The notes under the pieces are model-generated. The model was not told the origin of the DNA, made no database searches, and saw only the letters and a list, made by a program, of their open reading frames with translations. Below, in pieces: positions 4,050 to 20,878 of a DNA stretch of 64,000 bases. Position numbers and translations under genes: made by a program. Location of the stretch: contig JAQUNK010000001.1 of the NCBI GenBank assembly GCA_028717645.1, positions 68,794-132,793 on the forward strand, written 5' to 3'. The stretch is from Candidatus Omnitrophota bacterium. Its GTDB lineage: Bacteria > Omnitrophota > Gorgyraeia > Gygaellales > JAMWDD01. How positions within the stretch are numbered: the first letter of the stretch is position 1; each line of letters starts with the position of its first letter.

Positions 4050-4086
4050 AAGTAGTCCTCCGCAAAGGCTCTGGAAACCTGCTTTA

Positions 4087-5181: not shown

Positions 5182-5971
5182 GGCGGTTATTGAAGACGTC
5201 CGGCAGGAAACAGCCGCAATAAAGACTTTTGTCTTTAAGCCGAAATCTCCATTCTCATTCCGTACCGGGCAATTTATCGAGCTTACCGTTCCGGGCTTCG
5301 GAGAGGCGCCCTTTACGCCTTCGTCTGACCCTGCGATAGCGGAAAAATTAGAAGTGACCATTATGAAAGCGGGTAAGGTCACGGCAGTGTTGCATAATAT
5401 GAAGAAGGGCGATGTAGTCGGCATACGCGGGCCTTACGGCAAGGGATACCCCTTGGATAAATTTAAGGGTAAGGATATTCTTATAGTTGGTGGCGGCGTG
5501 GGGCTAGCTCCATTACGGTCATTCTTATACGCGCTTTTTGCCGATATAGATAAATATAATAAAATAATTTTACGCTATGGTTCGCGCACTTCCAATGATA
5601 TTGTCTATAAAGATATTATTCCCGAGTGGTCAAAAAAGAAAAAAGTAGATATCATGACTACCGTCGATATGGGAGATCCTGCCTGGAAGGGCAATGTGGG
5701 GCTGGTTACGACGATATTAAACGACTTGCCGTTGGACCTGAAAAAAGCAGTGGGGGTGGTTTGCGGCCCGCCGATCATGATGAAATTCGTGACGCTAAAA
5801 TTGCTTGAGCTGGGGTTTAAGCCGCAGGATATTTATTTATCCATGGAAAAGAACATGTCTTGCGGGCTGGGTAAATGCGGGCATTGCCGATTGGGTAAAT
5901 TTTATGTTTGTAAGGATGGCCCGGTGTTCGCTTACGAAGACATAAAAAATATGCACGATATCTGGGATTAA
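5153..5971 (+). CDS. FAD/NAD(P)-binding oxidoreductase with a C-terminal [2Fe-2S], similar to PyrK, HydG or AsrB.
   Basis: RTGQFIEL (flavin binding), GGGVGLAPLRS (NAD(P) binding) and a C-terminal CGLGKCGHCRLGKFYVCKDGPVF motif. Confidence 0.7.
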   Translation: MKKNIYQPIEAVIEDVRQETAAIKTFVFKPKSPFSFRTGQFIELTVPGFGEAPFTPSSDPAIAEKLEVTIMKAGKVTAVLHNMKKGDVVGIRGPYGKGYPLDKFKGKDILIVGGGVGLAPLRSFLYALFADIDKYNKIILRYGSRTSNDIVYKDIIPEWSKKKKVDIMTTVDMGDPAWKGNVGLVTTILNDLPLDLKKAVGVVCGPPIMMKFVTLKLLELGFKPQDIYLSMEKNMSCGLGKCGHCRLGKFYVCKDGPVFAYEDIKNMHDIWD

Positions 5972-5978
5972 TATAGAG

Positions 5979-6479
5979 ATGAAGAGATTATTTGTGGATC
6001 TTGAACTTTGCAGCAAATGCGATGAATGTTCGGTCTGTTGCGATTATTTTTATCATCCGCAGAATAACGGCATTGCGTCTTTACGCGAATACGCGACTTT
6101 TGCCACTATCTGCCGGCATTGCGAACAGGCGCCGTGCGTCAATGCCTGTTATCATGATGCATTAGAGCGTGCCAGCGATGGGCACATCAAACGCTATAAA
6201 ATGCGCTGTACCAGCTGTAAATCCTGCTCTGTGGCTTGCCCGTTCGGGATAATTTTTCAGGACTTTATTCCTTATCTGGACTCAAAATGCGATTTTTGTA
6301 TCGGCCGGTCAGATAAATTTCCGGCCTGTATCGCCAGTTGCCCCGAGCACGCTGTTGAAGTAAAAGACGTAGAAGAAAGCCTGGAACAAAATATTTATTT
6401 CGTGGGCGAACACTTGGCTGTGCATAGTTTGAAGTGGTCAAGGGAAGACCTGCAGCCGCCTAAACCGAAGAAGAAATGA
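5979..6479 (+). CDS. Polyferredoxin electron-transfer subunit with four [4Fe-4S] clusters, similar to HycB, HydN or CooF.
   Basis: Four Cys clusters (CSKCDECSVCC, CRHCEQAPCVNAC, CTSCKSCSVACPFG, CDFC...CIASCP), colinear with HycB. Confidence 0.7.
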   Translation: MKRLFVDLELCSKCDECSVCCDYFYHPQNNGIASLREYATFATICRHCEQAPCVNACYHDALERASDGHIKRYKMRCTSCKSCSVACPFGIIFQDFIPYLDSKCDFCIGRSDKFPACIASCPEHAVEVKDVEESLEQNIYFVGEHLAVHSLKWSREDLQPPKPKKK

Positions 6480-7387
6480 AATTATTGCTTAGTTATCTCA
6501 TATTCCCGGGGTTTTTATTCAGTGCATGCATAGGTTTATTCGCCGGTTGGGTGGACAGAAAGGTCACTGCGCGTATCCAATATCGCGTAGGCCCGCCGTG
6601 GTATCAGAATTTCATGGATATCGTAAAGTTATTGCATAAAGAGATCATTATACCTGAGGGCGCGAGGCTTACCTTTTTATTCGCGCCATTCTTAGGGCTC
6701 TTAAGCGTGGTCTTGATGTCTACCATATTGGGCAGGAGTTTAAATATCTACGCTTCGGGTTTTAGCGGTGACCTCATTGTGATCGTTTATTTGTTGGTTA
6801 TGCCGGCGATAGCCATGATCATTGGTGCATCTTCTTCCGAGAATCCACTGGCTTCTATCGGCGCATCGCGTGAGATCAAGGCGGTCCTGGCTTACGAATT
6901 ACCTTTTATCCTTTCGATTATCGCGATCATCGTAAAATCCGGAGGGAGCATCCGGATAGGAAGCATTCTGAACCACCAGGCCTTTGCCGGATCTAACATC
7001 GCTTCTTTTTCCGGGGCCCTGGCTTTTATCGTGGTTTTATTCTCGATACAGGCAAAGCTATGTTTTGTGCCTTTTGATGCTTCTGAGGCGGAGCAGGAAC
7101 TTATGGCCGGTACTTTGATCGAGTATTCGGGCTTGCCTTTGGCGATGTTTAAATTAACCAAGGCGATATTGCTTTATGCGTTGCCGGTATTTTTGATCGT
7201 TTTATTTATGGGCAAGGATATCAGCCCGATATTCCTGATTGGTAAATATATTTTGATCTTAGTGTCGATCATCCTGATCAAAAATACCAACCCGCGTTTG
7301 CGTATCGACCAGACATTAAGATTTTTCTGGGGGCCGATGGCTGTACTAGCGGTATTGGCATTGGGATTGACTTTATTCGGATTATAA
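6476..7387 (+). CDS. Membrane subunit of a group 4 hydrogenase, NuoH-like (also similar to HycD, EchB, MbhM).
   Basis: Eight predicted TM segments. The RIQYRVGPPWYQNF signature is shared with NuoH and HycD. Confidence 0.8.
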   Translation: MKLLLSYLIFPGFLFSACIGLFAGWVDRKVTARIQYRVGPPWYQNFMDIVKLLHKEIIIPEGARLTFLFAPFLGLLSVVLMSTILGRSLNIYASGFSGDLIVIVYLLVMPAIAMIIGASSSENPLASIGASREIKAVLAYELPFILSIIAIIVKSGGSIRIGSILNHQAFAGSNIASFSGALAFIVVLFSIQAKLCFVPFDASEAEQELMAGTLIEYSGLPLAMFKLTKAILLYALPVFLIVLFMGKDISPIFLIGKYILILVSIILIKNTNPRLRIDQTLRFFWGPMAVLAVLALGLTLFGL

Positions 7388-7388
7388 A

Positions 7389-7820
7389 ATGAGCCTGAAA
7401 ATAAAAGCTTTAACTAAATCTCTCTGGGTTTTCCATGCTGCTACTTCACCGTGCAATAACTGTGATATCGAAGTGTTGGATCTTTTTACTCCGCGCCATG
7501 ATATTGAAAGATTCGGGATGACCCTAGTGGGAAGCGTTAGGCATGCGGATGTGCTTGTGGTCACTGGTGTGCCTAATTATAAAACTAAAGAAAGGCTGAA
7601 GAAATTATACAGCCAGGTCTCCAAACCGTGTCTGGTGGTGGCCATAGGAAATTGCGCCTGCGGTAGGATTATGTTCAAGGAATCCTACAATAGCCCTTGC
7701 CCGGTGGATGAAGTGGTGCCGGTCGATGTCTATATCCCGGGCTGCCCGCCGAAGCCGGAGGCGATGATCGCGGGGATCGTAAAGCTGATTAATAAACTTA
7801 AAGCAAAAGAGAAGAAATAA
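7389..7820 (+). CDS. [NiFe]-hydrogenase small subunit, NuoB-like (also similar to EchC, MbhJ, HycG).
   Basis: CNNCDIEV, GNCACGR and PGCPPKPEA motifs typical of NuoB-like proximal-cluster subunits. Confidence 0.8.
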   Translation: MSLKIKALTKSLWVFHAATSPCNNCDIEVLDLFTPRHDIERFGMTLVGSVRHADVLVVTGVPNYKTKERLKKLYSQVSKPCLVVAIGNCACGRIMFKESYNSPCPVDEVVPVDVYIPGCPPKPEAMIAGIVKLINKLKAKEKK

Positions 7821-8263
7821 TGCTTGTCCTAGAAAGAGTAAAAGAAAAGTTAGCCAATAAGGCCTTTGATTGGTACGAACATACGCCAAGACGGGTTTAT
7901 TTTAAAATGGACCCCAAGGATATTAAGCATGTGGCGAATGCCTTGTTCAAGGACCTGGGTTTCAGGTTTATTATTGCCACTGGCTGCGATACGCCGGAAG
8001 GCATTGAGATCCTGTACCATTTTGGTTATGACAAGGCCGGCCTGATCGTTTCCGGACGGACGTTATTAAAAGATAAGAAAAAACCAGAAATAGATTCTAT
8101 CGCCCCGTTATTTGTTGGCGCTGAATGGATAGAGCGGGAGATGTGGGAACTTCTGGGGATAAATTTTATCGGGCATCCTAATTTAAAGCACCTGCTTTTG
8201 ATCGATGAATGGCCAAAGGGAGACTATCCTTTGCGCCACGACCTTAAAGAGGGGTCTAAATAA
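7820..8263 (+). CDS. NuoC-like 30-kDa subunit of the hydrogenase (also similar to EchD, MbhK).
   Basis: Overall similarity and length match the NuoC/HycE N-terminal domain. Its position between the small and large subunit genes agrees. Confidence 0.65.
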   Translation: MLVLERVKEKLANKAFDWYEHTPRRVYFKMDPKDIKHVANALFKDLGFRFIIATGCDTPEGIEILYHFGYDKAGLIVSGRTLLKDKKKPEIDSIAPLFVGAEWIEREMWELLGINFIGHPNLKHLLLIDEWPKGDYPLRHDLKEGSK

Positions 8264-9450
8264 TGTCAAAAAAAGTAATTATACCCATAGGGCCGTATCA
8301 CCCGCTGCAAGAAGAACCGGAATTTTTCCGGCTTTTTGTAGAGGGAGAGAAGGTCGTGGATATAGATATCGTCCTGGGTTATATGCACCGTGGCATCGAA
8401 GAGCTGGCTGAGCACAAACATTACGACCAGGTGGCCTTTTTGGTCGAGCGCATCTGCGGGATCTGTTCGAATTCGCATCCTTTTGCTTATGTCAATGCTG
8501 TAGAGAATATAGGTAAGATGGAGGTGCCGGAAAGGGCGCTCTACATCCGCACGATCATCGCGGAGTTGGAAAGATTGCATAGTCATTTATTATGGCTGGG
8601 CCTGGCCGGGCACTTTATCGGTTACAATACCGTCTGGATGTGGTCATGGCGTTATCGCGAGCCGGTGTTGGATTGTTTTGAAATGATCACCGGTAACCGC
8701 CAGCATTACGGAATGATGAAGATAGGCGGTGTCAGGCGTGATATCAAAGATGAAGATGTACCGGTGTTAAAAAAGACCCTTGATGAGTTGGTCCCGGCGT
8801 TAGATATGTTTAAGGGTGCGGTGATGGATGACCCGGTGATCCAGGCGCGGCTTAAGGGCGTGGGCGTGCTTACCAGGAAGCAGGCTATTGAATGGTGCGC
8901 GGTAGGGCCGACTGCCCGGGCGTCGGGAGTGGATATAGATATTCGTAGGGACGATCCTTATGGTGCGTATGATAAAGTAGATTGGAACGTGATCGTAGAA
9001 AAAGACGGCGATATATTTTCTAAAACAGTAGTGCGCATATTGGAGATGTATGAATCAGTAGGTATCATCCGTCAGTGCCTGGACAGGATGCCGAAGGGCG
9101 AGATCGATGCCAATGTCAAAGATATCCCTCCCGGGGAAGGTATCGGTAGAGTTGAGGCGCCGAGGGGCGAATGTTTCCATTATGTAAAAAGCGACGGGAC
9201 CAACCGGCCCCTGCGGCATAAGATCAGAGCGCCCAGTTATATGAATGTGGCAACTAACAAAGTGGCTGCAGTGGGCCAGACGATTTCCGATACGACGATC
9301 ACCCTGGCTGCGGTTGACCCTTGCTACTGCTGTACAGAGAGGGTGATGGTTGTAGACAAGAAGACCAACGGCAAGATCATGGATGGCTTGGACCTGGTAA
9401 GATTGTCCCAGGAAAAGACGGAAAAAATTAAAAAGGCGCTTAAGCAATGA
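8263..9450 (+). CDS. Group 4 [NiFe]-hydrogenase large subunit, NuoD-like (also similar to EchE, MbhL, HycE).
   Basis: N-terminal RICGICSNSH (L1 CxxC) and C-terminal DPCYCCTER (L2 DPCxxC) nickel-iron ligand motifs are both present. Confidence 0.85.
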   Translation: MSKKVIIPIGPYHPLQEEPEFFRLFVEGEKVVDIDIVLGYMHRGIEELAEHKHYDQVAFLVERICGICSNSHPFAYVNAVENIGKMEVPERALYIRTIIAELERLHSHLLWLGLAGHFIGYNTVWMWSWRYREPVLDCFEMITGNRQHYGMMKIGGVRRDIKDEDVPVLKKTLDELVPALDMFKGAVMDDPVIQARLKGVGVLTRKQAIEWCAVGPTARASGVDIDIRRDDPYGAYDKVDWNVIVEKDGDIFSKTVVRILEMYESVGIIRQCLDRMPKGEIDANVKDIPPGEGIGRVEAPRGECFHYVKSDGTNRPLRHKIRAPSYMNVATNKVAAVGQTISDTTITLAAVDPCYCCTERVMVVDKKTNGKIMDGLDLVRLSQEKTEKIKKALKQ

Positions 9451-11117
9451 CCACTAGCCGCTTTTATCCATTACTGAGATTGGACGCCCTGAACAGTTTT
9501 GTGGTTCTGGCCATAGCGTTGTTCTCTGCCCTCACAATAATTTATTCTTTGAAATTCATAAAAGAAAAGCGGCTGCAATATTATACCTATATTATCCTGA
9601 CTGCTTTCGCCTCAATCGGGGTGGTCCTGGCGAACAATCTTATCCTGCTTCTGGTTTTCTGGGGATTTCTGGGCCTGACATTGTATCTATTGGTTAGCAT
9701 GGGCCAGGGCTCGACCGATGCGGCCAAAAAGACCTTGATCATCGTAGGCGGGTCAGACGCCTTGATGCTTTTGGGTGTGGCTATAATTTATTTTCTCACC
9801 GACACCTTTTATCTGGACGCAATAAGGCTGGAGTTTAACAGTAGCCTGGCGGTTATTTCCTATATCTGTATCGCCCTGGCTTGTTTTGCGAAAGCAGGGG
9901 CAATACCGCTACATACTTGGATACCCGACGCTGCTAAGTCAGCGCCTGCTCCGGTAGCCGCCTTTCTGCCTGCATCTTTGGATAAATTATTGGGGATCTA
10001 TTTATTAGCCCGCCTGAATCTGGACCTGTTCACGATGAATACGGCAATGAATACTTTCCTTATGGTTATTGGTGCAGTGACCATAATCACGGCGGTAATG
10101 ATGGCTTTGGTACAGCATAATTTAAAAAGGCTTTTGGGTTATCACGCGGTTTCACAGGTCGGTTATATGGTTTTAGGTATTGGTACGGGAAATCCCATTG
10201 GTATCGCCGGCGGGATATTCCATATGCTGAACCATGCCGTATACAAATCCTGTTTGTTCTTTACCGCGGGTAACATTGAATACCGCGCGAAAACGTCCGA
10301 ACTTGATGAATTAGGGGGATTGGCTAAATTGATGCCGGTTACTTATATTTCCTGTCTGGTAGCCAGCTTTTCCATATCCGGCGTACCGCCTTTTAATGGT
10401 TTCTTCTCTAAATGGATGATCTATCAGGGCCTGGTTACCCAATTACAGAGTGCGGATTACAGGATACAGGCGATAAATATCTTGTGCCTGGCAGCGGCTA
10501 TGTTCGGCTCAGGGCTTACCCTGGCCAGTTTTATGAAGCTAATTCATGCGGCATTTCTTGGCCAACCGAACAATGCGCTCATCCGGCGCTCGTTGCAAGG
10601 AGGGCATAAAGATGAGGTGCCATTCTCCATGTGGCTGCCGCCCTTGATATTAGCGGTTATCTGCGTTGTATTCGGTGTATTCGCTTATCAAATCCCGCTC
10701 AGGGTTTTTATTTTTCCCGCTGTGCCGGGAGTAGATTTTATCGGGACGTGGTTTGCCGGGTTATCTACTTTATTGATTGCTTCAGGACTTGTTTTAGGAT
10801 TATTTATATTTAGATCAAGAGGCCTGGGGTCTTTCATCCGGCAGGATGCGGCCTTTATGGGTTGTGAACCGGAAGACCTGGATAAACACCGGATCACCGG
10901 AATAGAATTTTATAACACGATAAAAGAATACGGCATATTAAAAGGGATTTATCAGAAGGCCGAATCAGGAGTTTATGATATCTACGAACAGGTCAAGAAG
11001 GTTTTGTCCGGCGCAGGCAGGTTCCTGCAATATCTGCATAACGGAGTACTGCCTTCGTATCTGATCTGGGCGCTTTTGGGAATGATCGGTTTATTCCTTA
11101 TTCTGATGAAGGGTTAA
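9447..11117 (+). CDS. NuoL/MrpA-like proton- or sodium-pumping antiporter subunit (also similar to MbhH).
   Basis: 556 aa with about 14 predicted TM segments. Conserved HAVYKSCLFF...GVPPFNGFFSK antiporter-domain motifs. Confidence 0.75.
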   Translation: MTTSRFYPLLRLDALNSFVVLAIALFSALTIIYSLKFIKEKRLQYYTYIILTAFASIGVVLANNLILLLVFWGFLGLTLYLLVSMGQGSTDAAKKTLIIVGGSDALMLLGVAIIYFLTDTFYLDAIRLEFNSSLAVISYICIALACFAKAGAIPLHTWIPDAAKSAPAPVAAFLPASLDKLLGIYLLARLNLDLFTMNTAMNTFLMVIGAVTIITAVMMALVQHNLKRLLGYHAVSQVGYMVLGIGTGNPIGIAGGIFHMLNHAVYKSCLFFTAGNIEYRAKTSELDELGGLAKLMPVTYISCLVASFSISGVPPFNGFFSKWMIYQGLVTQLQSADYRIQAINILCLAAAMFGSGLTLASFMKLIHAAFLGQPNNALIRRSLQGGHKDEVPFSMWLPPLILAVICVVFGVFAYQIPLRVFIFPAVPGVDFIGTWFAGLSTLLIASGLVLGLFIFRSRGLGSFIRQDAAFMGCEPEDLDKHRITGIEFYNTIKEYGILKGIYQKAESGVYDIYEQVKKVLSGAGRFLQYLHNGVLPSYLIWALLGMIGLFLILMKG

Positions 11118-11118
11118 G

Positions 11119-11637
11119 ATGGAAGTACATATTCTTTTGATATTCATGATTATCGGCGCAATAGTGGCTTTGGAGGCTAGAGACTTATTGTCGAGCGTGA
11201 TCGTGCTGGGGGTGGTGAGCTTTGCCCTCTGCTTGGCTTTTCTTATCCTTAAGGCACCGGACTTGGCTATTACGCAACTGGTGGTTGAGATTTTGTGTTT
11301 GATTATCCTGATCAGGGCAACGATCAAGCGGGACTTACCTCTGGCCATAGAAGGCCGCTGGATCTTTAATACCATTTCCACGGTAGTCTTTATTTGCGTG
11401 TTCCTTTATTTTGTCATGCTTGCCTTAAGAGAACTGCCTGTTTTCGGCGAGCCGATAATGGCCGTAGTGAGAGAATACCTGGAAAAAGGCAAGACCGAGA
11501 CCGGAGCGGTGAATCTAGTGACTGCGGTGGTCCTGAATTTCCGCGCCTACGATACGCTCGGTGAGGCGGCAGTCTTATTTACTTCTATCATCGGGATAGT
11601 GGCGGTTTTACGCAGCCCAGGGAAGAAGAAAGATTAG
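11119..11637 (+). CDS. Mrp-complex membrane subunit, MnhB-like DUF4040 domain (similar to MbhD/E).
   Basis: APDLAITQLVVE motif and four predicted TM segments. Confidence 0.6.
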   Translation: MEVHILLIFMIIGAIVALEARDLLSSVIVLGVVSFALCLAFLILKAPDLAITQLVVEILCLIILIRATIKRDLPLAIEGRWIFNTISTVVFICVFLYFVMLALRELPVFGEPIMAVVREYLEKGKTETGAVNLVTAVVLNFRAYDTLGEAAVLFTSIIGIVAVLRSPGKKKD

Positions 11638-12087
11638 ATGGAAAATAAACCAAAGACAGGTATGAGCCTGATAGTCAAGACGATCACCCGCTTGATCGTG
11701 GGTTTAGTTTTGCTTTTCGGCATATATATTGTTTTGCACGGGCATCTTTCTCCGGGTGGTGGTTTTTCCGGAGGGGTGATCGTGGCCTTGTCCTTTGTGC
11801 TGATGATGCTTGCTTTCGGAGAAGACGTGGCTGTGGCAAAAATTTCCAGGAATCTTGCCTCTAACCTGGAAAGTATCGGCGCGCTGATGTTTTTATTCAT
11901 CGCTATTTTAGGTTTTCTGGGCGGTTCATTCTTCTTGAATATATTATCTACGGGAACACCTTTTAAATTATTTAGCGCAGGCACGATTATTTTAAGCAAT
12001 ATTTCTATCGGGATAAAAGTAGGCATAGGATTATTTGCCATATTCCTGGCTTTAGTAATTTTGGAAAAGACAAAGAGGGAAAGGTAA
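11638..12087 (+). CDS. Na+/H+ antiporter subunit B (MnhB/MrpB).
   Basis: HLSPGGGFSGG motif characteristic of the MnhB domain, in a small membrane protein. Confidence 0.65.
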   Translation: MENKPKTGMSLIVKTITRLIVGLVLLFGIYIVLHGHLSPGGGFSGGVIVALSFVLMMLAFGEDVAVAKISRNLASNLESIGALMFLFIAILGFLGGSFFLNILSTGTPFKLFSAGTIILSNISIGIKVGIGLFAIFLALVILEKTKRER

Positions 12088-12091
12088 TTAA

Positions 12092-12430
12092 ATGAGCCTC
12101 TATATATTGTGCATGATATTGTTTTGCATAGGCATTTACGGAGTGCTGCGCAAGCGTAATTTAGTAAAAATTATCATCGGCTTGGCTATTATGGGCTATT
12201 CCATAAATTTATTTCTTGTTCTTTTAGGCTATCGCTTCCACGGCCGGGCGGCTATCGAGGCAGAAACCCAGGATATCTTAAGCATGGTTGACCCGTTGCC
12301 ACAGGCCATGGCGCTTACTTCGATCGTAATCAGTCTGGGGATCCTCGCTTTGGTTATTTCCATCGCCATCAGGATCTACGAAAAATACGGCACGTTCGAT
12401 ATTACCAAGATAAAGAGGCTGAAGGGTTAG
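12092..12430 (+). CDS. Na+/H+ antiporter subunit C (MnhC/MrpC, NuoK-like).
   Basis: 112 aa with three predicted TM segments and NuoK/MnhC-like sequence. Confidence 0.65.
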   Translation: MSLYILCMILFCIGIYGVLRKRNLVKIIIGLAIMGYSINLFLVLLGYRFHGRAAIEAETQDILSMVDPLPQAMALTSIVISLGILALVISIAIRIYEKYGTFDITKIKRLKG

Positions 12431-13939
12431 ATGAAAGACGTAAATATCATTCCTTTATTTGTGATCATTCCGCTTTTGACGGCTTTTTTGATCGCGCTGC
12501 TCGGTAAAACAATAAAAAACTTTTCCGAGAAGATAATTGTCGCAAGCAGCAGTTTGCTCCTGGCTTTTTCTTTGTATTCGCAGATATTGCTTAGGCACAC
12601 TCCGTTAAAGACCTTAGTTTACAATGTCGGCGGATGGCTTCCGCCTTTTGGGATATCCATGGTCTTGGACGGATTAAGCAGTTTTATGCTCATAGTCGTC
12701 AATTTGATCGCTTTCTTCGTGGCCGTATATTCCTTAAGCTATATGGAAAAATATACGGATAAGCCGAAATTCTTCACCTTATTTGCTTTGATGGTTTCTG
12801 GCTTAAATGGCGTAATCGTTACCGGGGATATATTCAATCTTTTCGTATTTTTGGAGATCGCTTCAATTGCCAGTTACGCGCTGGTTGCCTTTGGCACGCA
12901 AGCAGAGGAACTCGAAGCTTCGTTCAAATATACGATCATGGGTACAGTTGCTTCCAGTTTCATATTTCTCGGGATCGTTTTTCTCTATGGTTTTGCCTCG
13001 ACACTGAATATGGCGCACATGGCTTCGGTATTGAATTCTAAATTAAGCATCTGGCTCCTGCCTTTCGTAAGCGTTCTATTTCTGGCGGGTTTTAGTTTGA
13101 AAGCGGCAATGGTCCCTTTCCACGGTTGGCTTCCCGACGCACATTCATCGGCGCCCGCTTCAATTTCCGCTATGCTTTCTGGCGTGTTGATCAAGACGTT
13201 GGGTATTTATGCGATGATGAGAATCTTCTTCAATGTCTTAGGGATAACCCAGGCCCAGTTGAGCATACTGATGTTTTTAGGCTCGCTTTCTATAATTACA
13301 GGCGCGATACTGGCTTTTTCGCAGTGGGATTTCAAAAGATTATTGGCTTATTCTACCATTAGCCAGGTCGGCTATATTGTTTTAGGCCTTGGCTTGGGCA
13401 CGCCGTTGGGAATATTCGGCGCGTTATTCCATTTATTCAACCATTCGGTGTTTAAATCACTGCTTTTTTTAAATTCCGGAGCAGTAGACTATGCCGCCAG
13501 CACCCGAGACCTAAGAGAAACAGGGGGGTTAAACAAAGTAATGCCTGTGACTACCAAGACCAATTTTATCGCCTCGATGTCCATTTCCGGCATACCGCCA
13601 TTCAGTGGATTTTTCAGTAAGCTGATCATTATTTTTGCTTGTATCCAAAAGGGCCATATCGGATACGGCTTATGCGCGGTAATAGGGAGCATTTTAACCT
13701 TGATCTATTTTATGAAATTGCAAAAGTTCGTCTTTTTAGGCGAGCTGAAAGATAAATTTAAGCAGATAGCAGAAGTTCCTTACCTGATGAGGTTTTCTAT
13801 GATTTGCCTCGCTGCCATCTGTATTTTGGCAGGTTTTCTGCTTCTTCCTGCCTTAAGGCCATTTTTGGACAGGGCCTCGGATGTTTTATTGGGCGGTACT
13901 AATTATGCGGCCGCTGTTATGGGGGCTGCTCTAAGATAA
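12431..13939 (+). CDS. Na+/H+ antiporter subunit D (MnhD/MrpD, NuoM/N-like).
   Basis: 502 aa with about 14 predicted TM segments. WLPDAHSSAPASISAMLSGV and GIPPFSGFFSK antiporter motifs. Confidence 0.75.
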   Translation: MKDVNIIPLFVIIPLLTAFLIALLGKTIKNFSEKIIVASSSLLLAFSLYSQILLRHTPLKTLVYNVGGWLPPFGISMVLDGLSSFMLIVVNLIAFFVAVYSLSYMEKYTDKPKFFTLFALMVSGLNGVIVTGDIFNLFVFLEIASIASYALVAFGTQAEELEASFKYTIMGTVASSFIFLGIVFLYGFASTLNMAHMASVLNSKLSIWLLPFVSVLFLAGFSLKAAMVPFHGWLPDAHSSAPASISAMLSGVLIKTLGIYAMMRIFFNVLGITQAQLSILMFLGSLSIITGAILAFSQWDFKRLLAYSTISQVGYIVLGLGLGTPLGIFGALFHLFNHSVFKSLLFLNSGAVDYAASTRDLRETGGLNKVMPVTTKTNFIASMSISGIPPFSGFFSKLIIIFACIQKGHIGYGLCAVIGSILTLIYFMKLQKFVFLGELKDKFKQIAEVPYLMRFSMICLAAICILAGFLLLPALRPFLDRASDVLLGGTNYAAAVMGAALR

Positions 13940-14433
13940 TGAAAAACAAAATTACTTTATTTATTATCTGGTATATCCTTTGGATGTGCTTAACCTGGCC
14001 GTTCGACCCTGAGCACGCGATAGTAGGTATCGCCGTTGCGGGATTCATTACCTTTATTACTAGTGATCTATTTACGCCGAGGCTGGAACATTTTGGCCAG
14101 ATAAACAGGTATTTATGGTTTTTCTATTTCGTATTTTTGTTCCTCGGGGAGTGTTTAAAGGCAAATATCAATGTGGCAATAAGGGTTCTTAACCCAAAAT
14201 TACCTATTCATCCCGGTATTGTTAAGGTAAAGACAGATTTGAAATCGGAGATAGGCATCACCTTTTTGGGAAATTGTCTTACACTTGCCTCGGGCACACT
14301 CTGTGTAGATGTTGACCAGGAAAGAAGATTTCTTTATGTCCACTCACTTGATGTCAAATCTCAAGATACTGGAGAATCAGCGCAATTGATCGTAAATAAG
14401 TTTGAAAAAGTTCTAGAGAGGATTTTTGAATGA
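13939..14433 (+). CDS. Na+/H+ antiporter subunit E (MnhE/MrpE).
   Basis: Size, N-terminal TM pair, and position between the mrpD and mrpF homologs. Confidence 0.55.
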   Translation: MKNKITLFIIWYILWMCLTWPFDPEHAIVGIAVAGFITFITSDLFTPRLEHFGQINRYLWFFYFVFLFLGECLKANINVAIRVLNPKLPIHPGIVKVKTDLKSEIGITFLGNCLTLASGTLCVDVDQERRFLYVHSLDVKSQDTGESAQLIVNKFEKVLERIFE

Positions 14434-14792
14434 TGAAGACCCTACGTTATTTCCTGGGCATGATCTTACTATTAGCGGCGTTATTATTGGTGAGCCTTTA
14501 CCCGTTACCGTCGCTATTGAATTGGCAGTCGCCTTTTTTGGCGCACTGTTTTTTCATCTTCATGCTTTGTTTCCTGATCTGTATTATTAGGATAATTATC
14601 GGGCCGACCTCTGCGGACAGGGCGGTGGTCATCAATACTTTGGGGATCTTTATTGTCGGTTTCTGCGCCATATTAAGTATTCCCACGGGCAGGGATTGGT
14701 ATCTGGATATTGCCATTGCCTGGGCGCTGCAGAGCTTCGTGGGGGCCCTCGCCTTTGCCAAGTATTTAGAGGGAAGGGGGTTCGATGAATAA
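14430..14792 (+). CDS. Na+/H+ antiporter subunit F (MnhF/MrpF).
   Basis: 120 aa with three predicted TM segments, at the MrpF position. Confidence 0.55.
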   Translation: MMKTLRYFLGMILLLAALLLVSLYPLPSLLNWQSPFLAHCFFIFMLCFLICIIRIIIGPTSADRAVVINTLGIFIVGFCAILSIPTGRDWYLDIAIAWALQSFVGALAFAKYLEGRGFDE

Positions 14793-15108
14793 TATTATCG
14801 GCACCGTATTTATTATTATAGGGTTGGTATTCGATGTTATCGGCTGTATCGGGCTTATTCGTTTTCCCGATGTCTACAGCCGTTTGCAGTCCAGTACCAA
14901 ATGCGCTGTTTTAGGCACTGTAAGCATTCTTCTCGGTACTTTTATTATCAGAGGGGTGAGCCCCACGGGCGTCAAGGCGTTTTTAACCGCGGTATTTTTG
15001 TTGCTTACTGCACCCGTAGCAGCGCATGCACTGGCGCGAGGCGCATATAAGTCTGCGGCAAGGCTTTGGGAAAAATCTGTTTGCGACGATTACGCTGAAA
15101 ATAAGTGA
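14785..15108 (+). CDS. Na+/H+ antiporter subunit G (MnhG/MrpG).
   Basis: GLIRFPDVYSRLQSSTK matches the MnhG signature (RFPD.Y.RLHA). Confidence 0.7.
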   Translation: MNNIIGTVFIIIGLVFDVIGCIGLIRFPDVYSRLQSSTKCAVLGTVSILLGTFIIRGVSPTGVKAFLTAVFLLLTAPVAAHALARGAYKSAARLWEKSVCDDYAENK

Positions 15109-15118
15109 GGACACAATC

Positions 15119-15718
15119 TTGAGATATCCTAAATTACGTGAATTAAAAGAAGCGATCAAGGCCCTGATCAAGGGGCCATATACGTCCAAGTTCCCCTTAA
15201 AGGCGCATAAACCTTTCCCGCGGTTCAGGGGCAGGCCCGAATACCATGAAGAGGATTGCGTAGGTTGTGGCGCCTGTTTTCAGGTCTGTCCGGCCAAAGC
15301 CATTGAAATGCAGGATATCGGAACAAAGAGGATCCTGACCGTACATTGGGATATGTGCGTTTTCTGCGGGCAATGCCAGGCAAATTGCATTACGGAGAAA
15401 GGTATTATGCTTTCAAACGAATTCGATCTGGCTACTACTGAGAAGAGGGAAGACCTTAAGCAGGAAATAGAAAAAGAATTCGTAGTTTGCACTTGCTGTG
15501 GTGAAAGGATCGTGCCGCGCGACCATATTTTATGGGTGGCCAAAAAGGTTGGTCCGCTGGTATTTTCAAACGCTTCTTTAATGCTTTTCTATTTAGAGAA
15601 CCTTGGAGTATCTGAGGAAAGCAAATCTTCTAAACCATCTGCGCAGGAATTTTCACGCGCCGACAGGATAAAAGTGCTTTGTCCCAAGTGCCGGCGCGAG
15701 GCAGTGATCCAATCCTAA
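15119..15718 (+). CDS. NuoI-like 2x[4Fe-4S] ferredoxin subunit (similar to MbhN), with a C-terminal CxxC...CxxC zinc-ribbon extension.
   Basis: CVGCGACFQVCP and CVFCGQCQANC motifs, plus C-terminal CTCCGER...CPKC. The ORF-track start at 15026 overlaps mnhG by 83 nt. A TTG at 15119 preceded by GTGAGGA (SD-like) is the more likely start. Confidence 0.6.
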   Translation: MRYPKLRELKEAIKALIKGPYTSKFPLKAHKPFPRFRGRPEYHEEDCVGCGACFQVCPAKAIEMQDIGTKRILTVHWDMCVFCGQCQANCITEKGIMLSNEFDLATTEKREDLKQEIEKEFVVCTCCGERIVPRDHILWVAKKVGPLVFSNASLMLFYLENLGVSEESKSSKPSAQEFSRADRIKVLCPKCRREAVIQS

Positions 15719-15740: not shown

Positions 15741-16919
15741 ATGTGTTATTCTATTCCCGGTAAAGTTATCGCGATCAAAGAAAACATCGTTTCGGTCGAC
15801 TATTTTGGCGAAGATAAGAAAGCAAAAAATGATTTTTTCACGCTAAAATTAGGCGACTATGTTTATGCGCAGGGCGGCTTTGTGGTGCAGAAGATCTCTG
15901 AACGAGAGGCGCTGCCGGTTCTGGAAAGCTGGAAGGAGCTCTTTGTTAAACTCCAAGAGGCGGACCTTAAGCTTTCGCAAAACCCCAAGACGCTTTATCA
16001 GCGGGCAAACTATATCCGCAATAAATATCTGGGCAATGCCTGTTGTATCCACGGGATCATTGAATTTTCCAATTATTGCCGTTCGGATTGCCTTTATTGC
16101 GGGATAAGAAAAAGCAATACCGTGCTTAAGCGCTACCGCATGGAACCAGAGGAGATAGTAAAGACGGCGGTGGATGCGGTAAAAACTTTAGGTTTTAAGG
16201 CGCTGGTGCTACAATCCGGCGAAGATACCTGGTATGATGACGATAAGCTTGTGGAGATAGTCAAAAAAATAAGGGAAAAAGCCGCGGTCCTCTTGGTTCT
16301 AAGCATCGGAGAAAGGGGCATAAAAACATATCAGAAACTTTATGATGCTGGGGCACGCGGAGCGCTCCTGCGTTTTGAAACAAGCAATCCGGCTTTGTAT
16401 GAGAAGATGCGGCCGGCTCACAAACTAGCGGAGCGTGTGGAATTGCTTAAAGAATTACGTGAAATGGGTTATCTGACCATGACCGGATTCCTGATCGGCA
16501 CACCCGGCCAGACAGATGAAGATATCCAAAATGATATCAAGCTTACCGCTAGCCTCGGTACGGATATGTTTTCCTTTGGCCCGTTCATCCCACATCCGGG
16601 CACACCCTTAGGTAAAAATTCTGCGCCTGGGCTAGACCGCGTTTTAAGCGTAATTGCCAATACCCGCCTAAGCTACCCAGAGGCAAAGATCCTGGTGACC
16701 ACGGCCATGGAGACACTGGATAAAGAGAATGGGATGAAGTTCGGGCTTTTATCTGGAGGCAATTCGCTGATGGTAAATTTGACTCCTGCCCAATACCAGC
16801 GGCTCTACGATATCTACCCGGATCGGGCAGGTGTCGCAGAAGACGTTGTCCAAAGAATCAATTCTGCAATAAAATTACTCTATTCCCTTGGCCGCGCACC
16901 GGCTGACCTCGGCCTCTAA
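15741..16919 (+). CDS. Fusion protein with an N-terminal HypC/HupF-like domain joined to a HydE-type radical SAM enzyme ([FeFe]-hydrogenase maturase family).
   Basis: The N-terminus MCYSIPGKV...GDYVYAQGGFVVQKISEREA matches the HypC fold (MCxxxP, GD.V.V..GFA...EA). The remainder is colinear with HydE: IIEFSNYCRSDCLYCGIRKSN...RYRMEPEEIV, LVLQSGED, FIPHPGTPL, NLTPAQYQRLYDIYP. Confidence 0.7.
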   Translation: MCYSIPGKVIAIKENIVSVDYFGEDKKAKNDFFTLKLGDYVYAQGGFVVQKISEREALPVLESWKELFVKLQEADLKLSQNPKTLYQRANYIRNKYLGNACCIHGIIEFSNYCRSDCLYCGIRKSNTVLKRYRMEPEEIVKTAVDAVKTLGFKALVLQSGEDTWYDDDKLVEIVKKIREKAAVLLVLSIGERGIKTYQKLYDAGARGALLRFETSNPALYEKMRPAHKLAERVELLKELREMGYLTMTGFLIGTPGQTDEDIQNDIKLTASLGTDMFSFGPFIPHPGTPLGKNSAPGLDRVLSVIANTRLSYPEAKILVTTAMETLDKENGMKFGLLSGGNSLMVNLTPAQYQRLYDIYPDRAGVAEDVVQRINSAIKLLYSLGRAPADLGL

Positions 16920-16990: not shown

Positions 16991-17020
16991 TTGCAAGACT
17001 TATCCGGCCGAGGTTATAAT
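16991..17020 (+). promoter_or_regulatory. Sigma70-like promoter (TTGCAA-17/18 nt-TATAAT) for nadE.
   Basis: TTGCAA at 16991-16996 and TATAAT at 17015-17020. The SD AAGGAG lies 6 nt before the ATG at 17047. Confidence 0.5.
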
Positions 17021-17046: not shown

Positions 17047-18735
17047 ATGATTTTACGCATCGCTATGGCCCAGATCAACAGCTGGTTGGGCGATTTTAAG
17101 TATAATACGGACAAGATCTATAACTTTATCAATAAGGCTAAGGCCGCGCAGTGCGATATCGTAATATTCCCTGAATTAGCCATACCGGGTTATCCTCCTG
17201 AAGACCTCATCTACAAAAAAGATTTCTTGAGGGAAAATAAACATTATCTGGATTTGATCCGGGATTTTAGCAAAGATATCGGTGTGGTGGTTGGTTTTGT
17301 CGAAGAAGAGAAGGGTAAAATTTATAATAGCGCCGCATTCATCTATAACAGGCGACTCTGCGGGGTTTATAGAAAAATGCACTTGCCTAATTATGGCGTG
17401 TTTGATGAAAAGCGTTATTTTTCATCCGGGGCGGATTTTAAAATTTATGATTTTGGCGGCGTAAAGATCGGCCTGGATATCTGCGAAGATATCTGGGAGG
17501 GTGGGCCGATACCGGAGCAGGCAAAGGCAGGCAGCTCAATAATTTTTGCCATTAACGCCTCGCCCTTTCATCAGGGCAAGATGGACTTACGTATGGATAC
17601 CCTAAAAGAGCAAGCTAAAGAGAACAAAGTCTATATCGCCTATACGAACTTAGTCGGCGGGCAGGATGAATTGATCTTTGACGGCAGAAGCATCCTGATC
17701 GATACGAAGGGGAAAACATTGGTCCAGGGGAAAGCATTTGCAGAGGATTTATGCCTTTATGATATCGACCCTAAAAGTTTACCTAAGAAAAAAGTGAATC
17801 ATAAAAAATTAGTCAGGATTCCGGTAAAGAGATCGGTCATAGAAGCTGTTAAAGAGCCGTTGACGATTAAAGAAAGTGCCAAGCTCGACCCAGCTGAGGA
17901 AATTTATAAGGCATTAGTTTTGGGACTGCGAGATTATGTGTTAAAGAACAGTTTTAAGAAAGTGGTTTTAGGTTTAAGCGGCGGCATCGACTCTGCTTTA
18001 GTCTCGGCATTAGCTATGGATGCGTTAGGCAAAGAAAATGTCATTGGTGTATTTATGCCGTCCCAATTTACCTCAGGAGAAAGTAAGGAAGACGCGCTGG
18101 CCGTGGCGAATAATTTAGGGATCAATATCCACACGATCTCTATCCAGGATATTTTCTTAAAATATCTGGAAGGGTTAGCGCCGCAGTTCCAAGGTACTAC
18201 CAGGGGCATTGCCGAAGAAAATGTGCAGGCGCGTATCAGAGGGAATATCTTGATGGCGCTTTCTAACAAATTCGGCTGGTTGGTTCTGACCACTGGAAAT
18301 AAAAGCGAAATCAGTGTCGGGTATACTACTTTATACGGTGATGCCGCAGGAGGCTTTGCGCCGATCAAGGACGTACCCAAGACATTGGTCTATGAATTAG
18401 CCAGGTATAGAAATTCTCTTTCCCGCCCGATAATCCCTGAAAGGGTTTTTAGCAAAGCGCCGACCGCGGAACTAAGGGAGAATCAAAAGGACCAGGATAC
18501 GCTTCCGCCCTATGAGGTCCTAGACCCGATATTAAAGGCTTATATTGAGGATGAGAAGTCTTTGGACAAGATCGTCGCTTCAGGTTTTGATAGAGAGGTC
18601 GTAAAACTGACCATTGAGATGGTTGATAAAAATGAATATAAACGCCGGCAGTCCGCTCCGGGGATCAAGATTACGCCCAAGGCCTTTGGCCGTGACCGCC
18701 GCATGCCGATCACGAATAGATTCAAACAATTCTAA
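17047..18735 (+). CDS. nadE: Glutamine-dependent NAD+ synthetase.
   Basis: N-terminal CN-hydrolase domain (MAQINSWLGD...FPELAIPGYPPED) plus a C-terminal NAD-synthetase PP-loop (GLSGGIDSALV). Confidence 0.9.
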   Translation: MILRIAMAQINSWLGDFKYNTDKIYNFINKAKAAQCDIVIFPELAIPGYPPEDLIYKKDFLRENKHYLDLIRDFSKDIGVVVGFVEEEKGKIYNSAAFIYNRRLCGVYRKMHLPNYGVFDEKRYFSSGADFKIYDFGGVKIGLDICEDIWEGGPIPEQAKAGSSIIFAINASPFHQGKMDLRMDTLKEQAKENKVYIAYTNLVGGQDELIFDGRSILIDTKGKTLVQGKAFAEDLCLYDIDPKSLPKKKVNHKKLVRIPVKRSVIEAVKEPLTIKESAKLDPAEEIYKALVLGLRDYVLKNSFKKVVLGLSGGIDSALVSALAMDALGKENVIGVFMPSQFTSGESKEDALAVANNLGINIHTISIQDIFLKYLEGLAPQFQGTTRGIAEENVQARIRGNILMALSNKFGWLVLTTGNKSEISVGYTTLYGDAAGGFAPIKDVPKTLVYELARYRNSLSRPIIPERVFSKAPTAELRENQKDQDTLPPYEVLDPILKAYIEDEKSLDKIVASGFDREVVKLTIEMVDKNEYKRRQSAPGIKITPKAFGRDRRMPITNRFKQF

Positions 18736-18742
18736 CAATTCA

Positions 18743-19567
18743 ATGGAAGAAAAATTAGCCAAATTAAAAAATATTTTAGGCCGTATAGATTCTGCGTTGG
18801 TTGCTTATTCCGGCGGAGTAGACAGTACCTTTTTACTCAAGGTTGTTTGTGATTGTTTAAGAAAAGAAAGAGTATTGGCTGTAACTGCGAATTCCGAGAC
18901 TTATCCCAGTGATGAATTAAAACTTGCCAGGCGCCTGGCCGATAAATTCAGGGTTAGGCATTTGATTATCGAGACGAGCGAATTACATAATCCGAAATTC
19001 AGCAATAACCCGGTTAACCGCTGTTATTATTGCAAGCGCGAACTTTTTTCCAGGCTCAAAGAGATCGCCCGGGATGAAAAAATAGAATATGTTTTGGATG
19101 CAACGCAGGCTTCGGATAGTTTTGATTTTCGTCCCGGAGACAAAGCCAAAAAAGAATTAGGCATTCGTTCGCCATTAAAAGAAGCAGGCTTTACTAAAGA
19201 AGACGTCCGGCAATTAAGCAAAAAATTCAAACTTCCTACCTGGGATATGCCGTCAAAAGCATGCCTGGCATCCAGGTTCCCTTATGGGATGAGGATAACC
19301 CGGGATGGTCTGCGCCGCGTTGAGAAAGCAGAAAAGATCATAAGATCCCTGGGCTTTTCGCAGGTCAGGGTACGTAATTATGACAGTACCGCGAAGATAG
19401 AAGTGGAAAAAGGCAAAGTTCCTTTTTTGATTTCAAAGTTGAGGCCAGAGAACTTGGCCAAAATCAAGAAAATAGGCTATAAATATATTACCGTGGATTT
19501 AGAAGGCTACAGAACCGGCAGTATGAACGAGGGTATAAAATTCGAAGCACGAAATCCTAAATCCTAA
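18743..19567 (+). CDS. larE: LarE-like ATP-dependent sulfur transferase (PP-loop ATP pyrophosphatase, TIGR00268 family).
   Basis: PP-loop AYSGGVDSTFLL, with three conserved Cys (RCYYCKR and KACLASR). The in-frame ATG at 18743 is preferred over the ORF-track start at 18614, which overlaps nadE. Confidence 0.6.
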   Translation: MEEKLAKLKNILGRIDSALVAYSGGVDSTFLLKVVCDCLRKERVLAVTANSETYPSDELKLARRLADKFRVRHLIIETSELHNPKFSNNPVNRCYYCKRELFSRLKEIARDEKIEYVLDATQASDSFDFRPGDKAKKELGIRSPLKEAGFTKEDVRQLSKKFKLPTWDMPSKACLASRFPYGMRITRDGLRRVEKAEKIIRSLGFSQVRVRNYDSTAKIEVEKGKVPFLISKLRPENLAKIKKIGYKYITVDLEGYRTGSMNEGIKFEARNPKS

Positions 19568-19610
19568 GCAAATCACAAATCCAAAATCTCAATGGTCCAA
19601 ACTAAAATGT

Positions 19611-19675
19611 TTAGAATTTGGAAAATTAGAATTTCGAATTTGTTTCGGGTTTCGATATTAGAATTTCGAATTTGT
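19611..19675. repeat. Direct repeats of ATTAGAATTTCGAATTTGT upstream of the cysteine desulfurase gene.
   Basis: Perfect 19-bp copies at 19625-19643 and 19657-19675, plus a partial copy (TTAGAATTTGG) at 19611-19621. Each contains the TTCGAA core. Confidence 0.6.
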
Positions 19676-19714
19676 CCAATAATTTAAAGCAATACATTAT
19701 AAAGTGAGGTTAAA

Positions 19715-20878
19715 ATGAAGCGTATATATTTTGATTATGCCGCCACTGCACCTACGGATCCGGAAGTTCTAAAAGCAATGCAGCCGTATTTTACCGAAAA
19801 GTTCGGCAATCCTTCCAGTATCCATTCTTTTGGGCAGGAGGCAAAAAAAGGTATTGAAGACGCGCGCGAGATCCTGGCTAATTTTATTGGCGCTAGCCCG
19901 GATGAAATTATTTTTACTTCCGGCGGGACAGAATCGGACAATTTTGCCCTGGAAGGCGTGGCTTATGCCCTGAAGGCAAAAGGAAACCACATTATTACCA
20001 GTGCCATCGAGCATCATGCGATCACCGAGGTAGCGAAATTCATGGAAAAGCACGATTTTAAGGTTACCTTGGTGGGTGTGGATAAATACGGCATGGTCAA
20101 TCCTGATGATATCAGGAAGGCAATTACGGATAAAACCATCCTTATTTCCGTAATGCATGCAAATAATGAAATCGGTACGATCCAGCCGATCGCGGAAATA
20201 GGAAAGATCGCCAAGGAAAAGGGGATCGCTTTCCATACCGACGCAGTCCAGACCATAGGCCATATTCCGGTTAACGTGAATGATCTCGGCGTAGATCTAC
20301 TTTCGCTTTCTGCGCATAAATTTTACGGGCCAAAAGGAGTAGGTGCGCTTTATGTCAGGAAAGGCACGCGCATAAACCGGTTCTTGCATGGCGGCGACCA
20401 GGAAAAAGGCAGGCGCGCTTCTACGCAGAATACTCCCGGTATTGTCGGCTTGGGCAAGGCGATCGAGATCTGCAAATTAAAGATGAGTGAGGAAACGGCT
20501 TTACAGAGCAAATGGCGGGATAGGTTGATCAAAGAGATCCCCGCCAGGATCCCTGATGTATTGCTCAATGGCCATCCGACCTCGCGGCTGCCGAATAATG
20601 TCAATTTCTCGATCAAGTACGTCGAAGGCGAGTCCATGATCCTGCATTTGGATATGCTTGGCGTGGCGGTATCTACCGGTTCAGCCTGTACTTCCGGTTC
20701 GCTTGAGCCGTCGCATGTGCTTCTGGCCACGGGCCTGACCCATGAATTGGCCCACGGTTCGGTGCGCATTACCTTAGGCAGATACAATACAGATAGTGAA
20801 ATAGATTATTTTCTAAATAACTTTCCGCAAATTGTAGAAAACCTGCGTAAGATGTCTCCGCTTTACGAAAAGAAATAA
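19715..20878 (+). CDS. iscS: Cysteine desulfurase (IscS/NifS class, class V aminotransferase).
   Basis: PLP-lysine motif SAHKFYGPKGVGALYV and an active-site Cys loop (STGSACTSGS). Confidence 0.85.
   Translation: MKRIYFDYAATAPTDPEVLKAMQPYFTEKFGNPSSIHSFGQEAKKGIEDAREILANFIGASPDEIIFTSGGTESDNFALEGVAYALKAKGNHIITSAIEHHAITEVAKFMEKHDFKVTLVGVDKYGMVNPDDIRKAITDKTILISVMHANNEIGTIQPIAEIGKIAKEKGIAFHTDAVQTIGHIPVNVNDLGVDLLSLSAHKFYGPKGVGALYVRKGTRINRFLHGGDQEKGRRASTQNTPGIVGLGKAIEICKLKMSEETALQSKWRDRLIKEIPARIPDVLLNGHPTSRLPNNVNFSIKYVEGESMILHLDMLGVAVSTGSACTSGSLEPSHVLLATGLTHELAHGSVRITLGRYNTDSEIDYFLNNFPQIVENLRKMSPLYEKK

Follow-up and report, generated by a model that had tools for sequence, protein, structure and literature searches.

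Why should an operon for a [NiFe] hydrogenase be followed, after 22 base pairs, by a gene that joins a carrier from the [NiFe] maturation pathway to a radical S-adenosylmethionine (SAM) enzyme from the [FeFe] maturation pathway? The question arises in a 64,000-nucleotide stretch of the genome of a Candidatus Omnitrophota bacterium (contig JAQUNK010000001.1; the whole stretch is called the window below), in which one reading frame encodes a HypC-like domain followed by a HydE-like barrel, directly downstream of a group 4 [NiFe] hydrogenase. An initial annotation of the window, which read the protein as a HypC domain fused to HydE, proposed that it belongs to an as yet uncharacterised pathway that builds or modifies an Fe(CO)x(CN)y cofactor, and that it possibly serves this hydrogenase. 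From the sequences and genomic contexts examined here, we put at roughly one in two the probability that HydG and the HypC–HydE-like fusion together build the Fe-carbonyl-cyanide unit of [NiFe] hydrogenases, thereby replacing or bypassing HypCDEF, the proteins through which, to our knowledge, all of these enzymes are generally taken to obtain their Fe(CN)2CO unit.

The fusion protein and its remodelled product site

The gene and its parts, with residues of the barrel compared to Thermotoga maritima HydE, lie as follows:

15741..16919, + strand: HypC–HydE-like fusion gene, 392 residues, a single ATG-to-stop open reading frame (ORF) matching PF01455, PF04055, TIGR03956 and TIGR00074
15741..15944, + strand: HypC-like carrier domain, residues 1-68, with an invariant M1-C2-Y3-x-I5-P6-G7 and an end-to-end alignment with Thermococcus kodakarensis HypC (2z1c)
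15945..16040, + strand: helical linker, residues 69-100, joining the C-terminal helix of the HypC-like domain to the N-terminal helix of the HydE-like barrel
15984..16904, + strand: HydE-like radical-SAM barrel, residues 82-388, which keeps M276, M344 and R211 and has V186 for T134 and G207 for R155
16041..16052, + strand: subfamily-specific C101-C102-x-H104 in beta-strand 1, with C102 at the position of H52 and H104 at that of R54; invariant in alignment A1
16077..16100, + strand: radical-SAM CX3CX2C motif, C113/C117/C120, aligned to C63/C67/C70

The reading frame before the fusion gene stops at 15718, which leaves the gap of 22 bp given in the initial annotation, and all of the peptide blocks quoted there are found in the 392-codon translation. 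The product is identical to a public protein (P0001; MDD5236625.1 and MDD5609996.1) that carries the automatic name HydE. Each of the two halves exceeds its curated cut-offs, i.e., those for HypC (PF01455 and TIGR00074) and for HydE (TIGR03956).

The claim of a HypC-type N-terminus is borne out by residues 1-63, which score 47-51 bits on the Pfam profile HupF_HypC (PF01455; gathering score, 28.5); on TIGR00074, the isolated N-terminus reaches 50.2 bits (cut-off, 48) and the full protein 47.0, slightly under the cut-off. In a sequence search of the PDB, T. kodakarensis HypC matches the N-terminus of the fusion over its whole length (E = 4.5e-11). Because the HypC profile cut-offs are passed and this alignment runs from end to end, an unrelated oligonucleotide/oligosaccharide-binding (OB) fold at the N-terminus is rejected. 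The essential Cys2 is also where it was said to be, in the MCYSIPGK of the window protein: M1, C2, I5, P6 and G7 occur in 28/28 family members (alignment A1), and Y3 is likewise invariant. In the AlphaFold2 (AF2) model of the fusion, built from 28 homologues (predicted local distance difference test, 90.6; predicted template-modelling score, 0.91), beta strands lie within residues 6-52 and are followed by a helix at residues 54-79, which together with a second helix at residues 85-97 spans the linker region. The HypC-like domain ranks among the most conserved parts of the family.

With HypC, HybG and HupF (PF01455, TIGR00074), the domain thus shares Met-Cys2, the conserved Pro, and a small predicted beta-barrel ahead of a C-terminal helix, and it shares a place in [NiFe] operons beside HypA and a protease. 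Unlike them, it is covalently fused to an enzyme, it has no HypD in any neighbourhood examined, and an invariant Gln44 (YAQGGF) occupies the position of the conserved HypC His (IVHTGF in T. kodakarensis HypC; His51, in VHxGF, in Escherichia coli). This His is considered functionally important in HypC.

The remainder of the protein (residues 82-388) is colinear with T. maritima HydE over the full length; in conserved columns the two are 45% identical, and the model shows the (beta-alpha)8 fold of HydE. TIGR03956 (rSAM_HydE) covers residues 79-374 at 261.9 bits against a cut-off of 254.6, a marginal pass, and the profiles of other radical-SAM enzymes all stay far below theirs (PylB, 143.3 bits against 348; BioB, 85.8 against 225; HmdB, TIGR03957, 61.8 against 320.9; ThiH, 56.5 against 380). 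T. maritima HydE is the top sequence match in the PDB (251 bits, with the C-terminal 307 residues aligned end to end), and its structures fill ranks 1-10 of a Foldseek search with the AF2 model, at target-normalised template-modelling scores of 0.82-0.87 and 41-42% identity; PylB and BioB rank lower, at 27% and about 20% identity. An identity as BioB, PylB, ThiH or HmdB/HcgA is rejected on both counts, i.e., scores under the profile cut-offs and weaker fold matches.

Although profile and fold agree with the HydE assignment of the initial annotation, the radical-SAM domain belongs to a distinct HydE-like subfamily and is not a canonical HydE. In a neighbour-joining tree of the radical-SAM domain, the fusions form a separate clade in 188/200 bootstraps (94%). 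When this domain alone was searched against 1.84 billion representatives, the nearest clusters were all fusions (420-450 residues), and canonical HydEs (330-365 residues) first appeared at about 47% identity or lower.

Residues were compared in T. maritima HydE numbering between 16 fused and 121 unfused representatives. The fusion clade keeps C63/C67/C70, E58, N61, V105, L157, R159, M224, T268/T269 and M291, with M224 retained in 16/16 and M291 in 13/16 of the fused representatives; the equivalents in the window are M276 for M224, M344 for M291 and R211 for R159. In HydE, the Fe(I)(CO)2(CN) species sits on M224 and M291, and the exit (S3) site is formed by a conserved Thr and two Arg, mutation of one of which impairs maturation of the hydrogenase HydA (PMC10114646; PMC11826987); R54 touches the CN ligands of the Fe(I) species (PMC11826987). 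The fusion clade has replaced these exit-site residues: position 52 is Cys and position 54 is His in 16/16 fused representatives (canonically His, Tyr or Phe, and Arg, respectively), position 134 is hydrophobic instead of Thr, and position 155 is Gly or Ala in 16/16 instead of Arg, whereas unfused HydEs retain R54 in 107/121, T134 in 101/121 and R155 in 101/121. The C-terminal auxiliary-cluster cysteines of T. maritima HydE are not present in the aligned fusion clade. The signature at the Cys/His pair and the exit site is found in all 90 fusions derived from genomic loci, those few near HydA or HydF included.

Because M224, M291 and R159 are kept but R54, T134 and R155 are replaced, the substrate-side radical chemistry looks intact and the product side looks rebuilt around a Cys/His pair. 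Clade structure and the loss of R54, T134 and R155 together disfavour a plain canonical HydE. A one-residue register shift as the source of the R155 loss was considered and rejected, since the alignment is ungapped and anchored at this place, with a caveat concerning Arg154 that is weighed below. Five further proteins of 342-464 residues (P0134, P0135, P0141, P0144 and P0229) carry the Cys52/His54/Gly155 signature, but no HypC domain could be detected in them; in these cases the HypC-like part may be encoded by a gene of its own, or the starts may have been mis-called.

Distribution and gene neighbourhoods of the family

Other HypC–radical-SAM fusions, which the initial annotation had suggested looking for, are widespread. 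A search of 5.8 billion proteins returned more than 120 clusters at 90% identity, all with PF01455 and PF04055, about 392 residues long and 61-100% identical, and a scan of one genome per GTDB species gave 80 loci in which the whole fusion was matched. With one and the same single-ORF architecture in all of these independent clusters and in each of the 80 genomes, a frameshift or an assembly error that joined two genes is rejected, and the fusion is no artefact. Its bacterial carriers are Omnitrophota, Planctomycetota, Elusimicrobiota, WOR-3, Desantis-, Sagan- and Margulisiibacteriota, Gammaproteobacteria, Spirochaetes, Syntrophales and the candidate phyla radiation (CPR); the archaeal ones are Nano-, Micr- and Woesearchaeota. 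The public names of these sequences (mostly an automatic HydE at NCBI, 'biotin synthase' at JGI, and also 'radical SAM protein') mis-describe the family.

The key partner of the fusion family is HydG, though not in this window. The HydG encoded next to the fusion in relatives has 456 residues and scores 537-547 bits on TIGR03955 (cut-off, 312); it lies no more than 3 kb from the fusion in 41/80 loci, and 40 of 42 HydG partners retain both the radical-SAM motif and the C-terminal CX2CX22C auxiliary-cluster motif. In two proteins, all three parts are joined as HypC-HydE-HydG triple fusions (P0122, 906 residues; P0129, 881 residues). A HydE-HydG fusion of the canonical type, without HypC, was also seen (P0147, 803 residues). 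In DPANN archaea (11 loci, among them L027-L029, L033, L035, L058, L059, L064 and L080), the fusion and HydG form a stand-alone two-gene unit, flanked by unrelated genes such as those for an H+-pyrophosphatase, a ZIP transporter, an ankyrin protein and a methyltransferase. A hidden minimal HydA was sought in these DPANN flanks, and none was found by profile seeds, loose motifs or Pfam.

The other neighbours were annotated with local profile seeds, a neighbourhood being taken as 10 kb to either side of the fusion. A [NiFe] large subunit is nearby in 37/80 loci, a HycI-type protease in 31/80, HypA in 24/80 and HypB in 3/80, and any [NiFe]-linked gene in 45/80. These genes recur in a common order (large subunit, HycI, HypA, fusion, HydG); along the series, the intergenic distances have medians of -17, 1, 4 and 1 bp. 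Both Ni-binding motifs are intact in 35 of the 36 large subunits near the fusion. The linkage to [NiFe] genes holds in 11 of 18 named lineages and beside two classes of hydrogenase (3b-type and group 4); 3b-type hydrogenase gamma and delta subunits, Mrp subunits and Rex also turn up repeatedly near the fusion, and no unknown conserved partner emerged there. Stand-alone HypC, HypD, HypE and HypF were found in 0/80 loci, a convincing HydF in 1/80, and a HydA homologue in 3/80 (L031, L081 and L085). In three Omnitrophota loci, a CbiM/CbiN-like/CbiQ/CbiO transporter lies directly 3' of the fusion (L005, 11185-13866; L012, 4112; L078, 7378); as a CbiMNQO-type nickel/cobalt transporter, it may possibly serve nickel uptake.

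If the seeds for the Hyp proteins were insensitive, they could return zero regardless of what the loci encode. As a control, metagenomes were scanned for the 3b-type large subunit and its surroundings, and the 80 further loci obtained were annotated with E. coli Hyp seeds as before. HypC, HypD, HypE or HypF was detected in about 10 of these and the fusion in 5, with no overlap. Because identical seeds find HypCDEF in the control loci, they are sensitive enough, and the zero count is not ascribed to them. Among the pooled loci of at least 6 kb with a large subunit, 0 have both the fusion and HypCDEF, 39 have only the fusion, 8 have only HypCDEF and 37 have neither, a mutual exclusion with a one-sided Fisher p = 0.005. 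A published neighbourhood survey places HypE, HypC, HypD and HypF among the genes most often found beside [NiFe] large subunits (PMC12727194, Table 1).

The relative closest to the window on a long contig (L090; 79% identity) helps to separate function from ancestry. There, the fusion follows a 3b-type enzyme and HycI, and the same genes as in the window follow downstream in the same order (NadE-LarE-NifS-BirA, with NadE, LarE and NifS at 4065-7743). Since the hydrogenase differs while the downstream genes are the same, a functional link is favoured over inherited synteny.

A proposed radical-SAM route and its alternatives

How might these proteins act on a [NiFe] enzyme? HydG would begin by splitting tyrosine and assembling cysteine-bound Fe(CO)2(CN) on its dangler iron, both of which are established HydG chemistry. 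The HydE-like barrel would then bind this complex, a 5'-deoxyadenosyl radical would attack the cysteine sulfur and strip the amino-acid ligand, and the Fe species would be held on M276 and M344, as the conservation of the HydE catalytic residues suggests. From canonical HydE, HydF would receive two Fe units that were brought together at the Arg/Thr-lined exit site; in the fusion, a single Fe unit would be caught by Cys102/His104 and handed on to Cys2 in the attached HypC-like domain. This domain would deliver the unit to the apo large subunit, HypA would insert nickel, and the HycI-type protease would trim the C-terminus. Nickel insertion by HypA and trimming by HycI-type proteases form the standard late pathway, and the genes for both are co-located with the fusion in relatives. 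The chemistry of each step, the hand-off from Cys102/His104 to Cys2 and the replacement of HypCDEF are what we infer from these patterns.

The proposed route is made of known parts. It shares with the HydG–HydE–HydF pathway a bona fide HydG, its auxiliary-cluster motif intact, and a HydE-type enzyme, mostly encoded by adjacent genes; unlike in that pathway, the scaffold HydF, which receives the HydE product, is missing nearby, a HypC-type carrier is attached, and the apparent client is a [NiFe] enzyme. In the HypCDEF pathway, cyanide comes from carbamoyl phosphate by way of HypF and HypE on a HypCD scaffold. There, too, an Fe unit is supplied ahead of HypA/HypB nickel insertion and of trimming, with the same Cys2 carrier fold, but the fusion route would take CO and CN from tyrosine by means of radical-SAM enzymes and has no HypD, HypE or HypF alongside. 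In Chlamydomonas HydEF, a protein that Posewitz et al. reportedly described in 2004, HydE is fused to its product acceptor HydF (C-terminal) and the client is an [FeFe] enzyme; by analogy, the HypC-like domain would accept the product of the HydE-like barrel to which it is joined. Full-text literature searches found no paper on a HypC–HydE fusion or on a HydG-linked [NiFe] maturation cluster.

The idea of an uncharacterised Fe(CO)x(CN)y route serving a [NiFe] hydrogenase therefore keeps its footing in the packing with [NiFe], HycI and HypA genes, in the lack of HypC, HypD, HypE and HypF alongside, and in the remodelled exit site. As first framed, however, it missed the key partner HydG, and a few members of the family have HydA or HydF nearby, which leaves some probability to a function in [FeFe] maturation.

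Several observations weigh against a [NiFe]-specific route. The first is stoichiometric, in that the known HydG product has two CO and one CN, and the [NiFe] site needs one CO and two CN. [NiFe] genes accompany the DPANN fusion–HydG pair in just 2 of 11 loci. The fusion lies near HydA in four loci (L001, L031, L081 and L085), in L001 also near HydF. At the rebuilt site, 13 of 22 clade members have an Arg at position 154, just before the lost R155, and this residue could make up for part of the loss; the TIGR03956 score is still just over the equivalog cut-off. Finally, since the counts cover 10 kb to either side, HypD, HypE and HypF, and likewise HydF and HydA, could sit elsewhere in the genomes, as the HydG, HypA and HycI missing from the window must.

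Two alternatives come closest, each of them unlikely in our estimate. One is that the fusion is simply the HydE of its lineage, maturing, together with HydG and HydF, an [FeFe] hydrogenase whose gene lies in another part of the genome; the HypC-like domain would then be an accessory shuttle for the Fe synthon (between HydG and HydE or between HydE and HydF), and adjacency to [NiFe] genes would reflect a clustering of hydrogen-metabolism genes. The passing TIGR03956 score and HydE-like fold, together with HydG as the constant partner, are what such a role would predict, and a further argument for it is L001, an Omnitrophota locus outside the 80-locus scan, where a true HydF (522 bits) and HydA lie within 10 kb of the HydG–fusion pair; the HydA homologues at L031, L081 and L085 point the same way, and the fusions near HydA or HydF share the signature residues of all others. 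Set against the 45 of 80 loci with [NiFe]-linked genes, however, one with HydF and three with HydA are few. The fusion is also translationally packed with HycI and HypA, its clade stands apart from canonical HydE, and the product-site Arg and Thr of HydE, whose mutation reportedly impairs HydA maturation, are all replaced. Moreover, we know of no role for HypC in [FeFe] maturation. A separate '[FeFe]-type' subclass of fusions near HydA or HydF was looked for and rejected, in that all 90 fusions carry the common signature. L001 further encodes (12224-14416), between the HydG–fusion pair and HydF, a radical-SAM protein of 730 residues with a weak HxsC-like match at its C-terminus.

An equally improbable alternative is that the pair is an add-on to the normal Hyp pathway, in which HydG and the fusion provide, under anoxic conditions, only CO or pre-carbonylated Fe, and dispersed HypD, HypE and HypF add the cyanides. 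A 2024 study describes the anoxic route to the [NiFe] CO ligand as still elusive (PMC11565642), and HydG makes CO, which would fill this gap. The HypC-like domain keeps Cys2, the residue used in HypC–HypD complexes, and maturation genes can be dispersed, because HydG, HypA and HycI are themselves not in these 64 kb. Against an add-on stand the 0/80 fusion neighbourhoods with HypD, HypE, HypF or stand-alone HypC, when these are present in control hydrogenase loci that have no fusion and rank among the commonest neighbours of large subunits in the survey cited above (PMC12727194, Table 1). In addition, HydG also makes cyanide, so that HypE and HypF would be redundant, and the HypC His is replaced by Gln throughout the family.

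Least probable is a general, HydF-independent delivery of a mono-iron unit on a HypC-type carrier to several hydrogenase classes, among them the minimal [FeFe] enzymes that DPANN archaea have. In its favour, 11 DPANN loci hold the pair by itself, mostly without a hydrogenase gene in the surrounding 10 kb, a few loci have both [NiFe] and [FeFe] genes beside the fusion (L031), and most archaea with HydA are reported to lack the conventional maturases (HydEFG), an alternative pathway having been proposed (PMC11216029). Against it, no HydA was found in any DPANN flank, such context as exists is overwhelmingly [NiFe], and the H-cluster needs a di-iron unit and an azadithiolate bridge, neither of which anything here supplies.

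The hydrogenase of the window and the meaning of the family

For a HydG–fusion route to the [NiFe] Fe unit, the likely client in the window is the Mbh-type enzyme encoded directly upstream. This operon and the other features of the window are:

4087..15718, + strand: group 4 (Mbh/Mrp-type) [NiFe] hydrogenase operon with ShyB/ShyC-like subunits linked to nicotinamide adenine dinucleotide (phosphate), NAD(P), from Pfam and NCBIfam annotation
4087-5181: ShyB/AsrA-like subunit, the first gene of the operon
5153-5971: ShyC/AsrB-like subunit of the flavin adenine dinucleotide (FAD)/NAD type
7389..7820, + strand: [NiFe] small subunit, NuoB-like, Oxidored_q6
8263..9450, + strand: [NiFe] large subunit, with RICGICSNSH and DPCYCCTER and a 35-residue C-terminal tail after DPCYCCTER
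3974..4002, + strand: promoter-like site, the best-scoring one, before the first gene of the operon (consensus match only)
16991..17020, + strand: promoter-like site between the fusion and nadE (consensus match only)
17047..20878, + strand: NadE, LarE-like sulfur transferase and NifS cysteine desulfurase, downstream of the fusion

The group 4 [NiFe] hydrogenase named in the initial annotation is genuine. Its large subunit has both Ni-binding Cys pairs and a 35-residue tail, so this is a true [NiFe] hydrogenase, whose cofactor has to be inserted and whose tail has to be cleaved off. The genes of the operon are all on the + strand with short or overlapping junctions; besides those listed, they encode a ferredoxin, NuoH-, NuoB- and NuoC-like subunits, a full Mrp-type membrane set and a NuoI/HycF-like protein with two [4Fe-4S] clusters. 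The operon is a hybrid, in that sulfhydrogenase-type beta and gamma subunits and the ferredoxin precede a group 4 Mbh/Mrp membrane module, and its gene content suggests an NAD(P)H-linked, ion-translocating [NiFe] hydrogenase. Mbh/Mrp membrane modules were also seen in four other loci (L005, L009, L011 and L053). The NuoI/HycF-like ORF (15026-15718) shares about 80 bp with the MnhG-like gene before it; the true start of the NuoI/HycF-like gene is probably downstream of 15026, because the profile match begins near residue 37-46.

Because no promoter-like site fits the 22-bp gap, the fusion looks like the last gene of the operon, and these consensus matches suggest that it belongs to the hydrogenase transcription unit. 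The initial annotation was also right that HydA, HydG, HydF and hypABDEF are missing from the window: profile seeds, including those for E. coli HypA-F, find nothing else in the 64 kb, and they find no HycI homologue there either. HydG, HypA and HycI are therefore taken to be encoded elsewhere in this genome. A second assembly of this organism extends the flanks by about 18 kb (L088, L089); the added sequence holds no hyp or hyd genes and is uninformative. Downstream, NadE, the LarE-type sacrificial sulfur transferase and NifS may reflect a supply of sulfur or iron, or plain synteny, and their membership in the system is uncertain; LarE and/or NifS recur in two other loci (L011 and L013).

What the family brings together is a [NiFe] carrier and the radical-SAM chemistry of the [FeFe] pathway, and it does so in [NiFe] operons of at least 11 lineages, CPR and DPANN organisms with very small genomes among them. 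Known parts are here connected to a new client, and the chance that they form a second pathway to the [NiFe] cofactor is substantial. The wider proposition, that many anaerobic bacteria and archaea make no use of HypCDEF and build their [NiFe] Fe centre from tyrosine by means of HydG and a HypC-tethered HydE-like enzyme, is held more tentatively, as something that may well be so but falls short of an even chance.

If this route is real, it would be a testable candidate for the anoxic supply of CO and CN and, for these lineages, a concrete oxygen-free source of CO. It would also explain why '[FeFe] maturases' are annotated in organisms whose visible hydrogenases are [NiFe], and it would offer a compact two-gene maturation module for the heterologous production of [NiFe] hydrogenases. 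The remodelled exit site amounts to a natural experiment on how HydE chooses between a mono-iron and a di-iron product.

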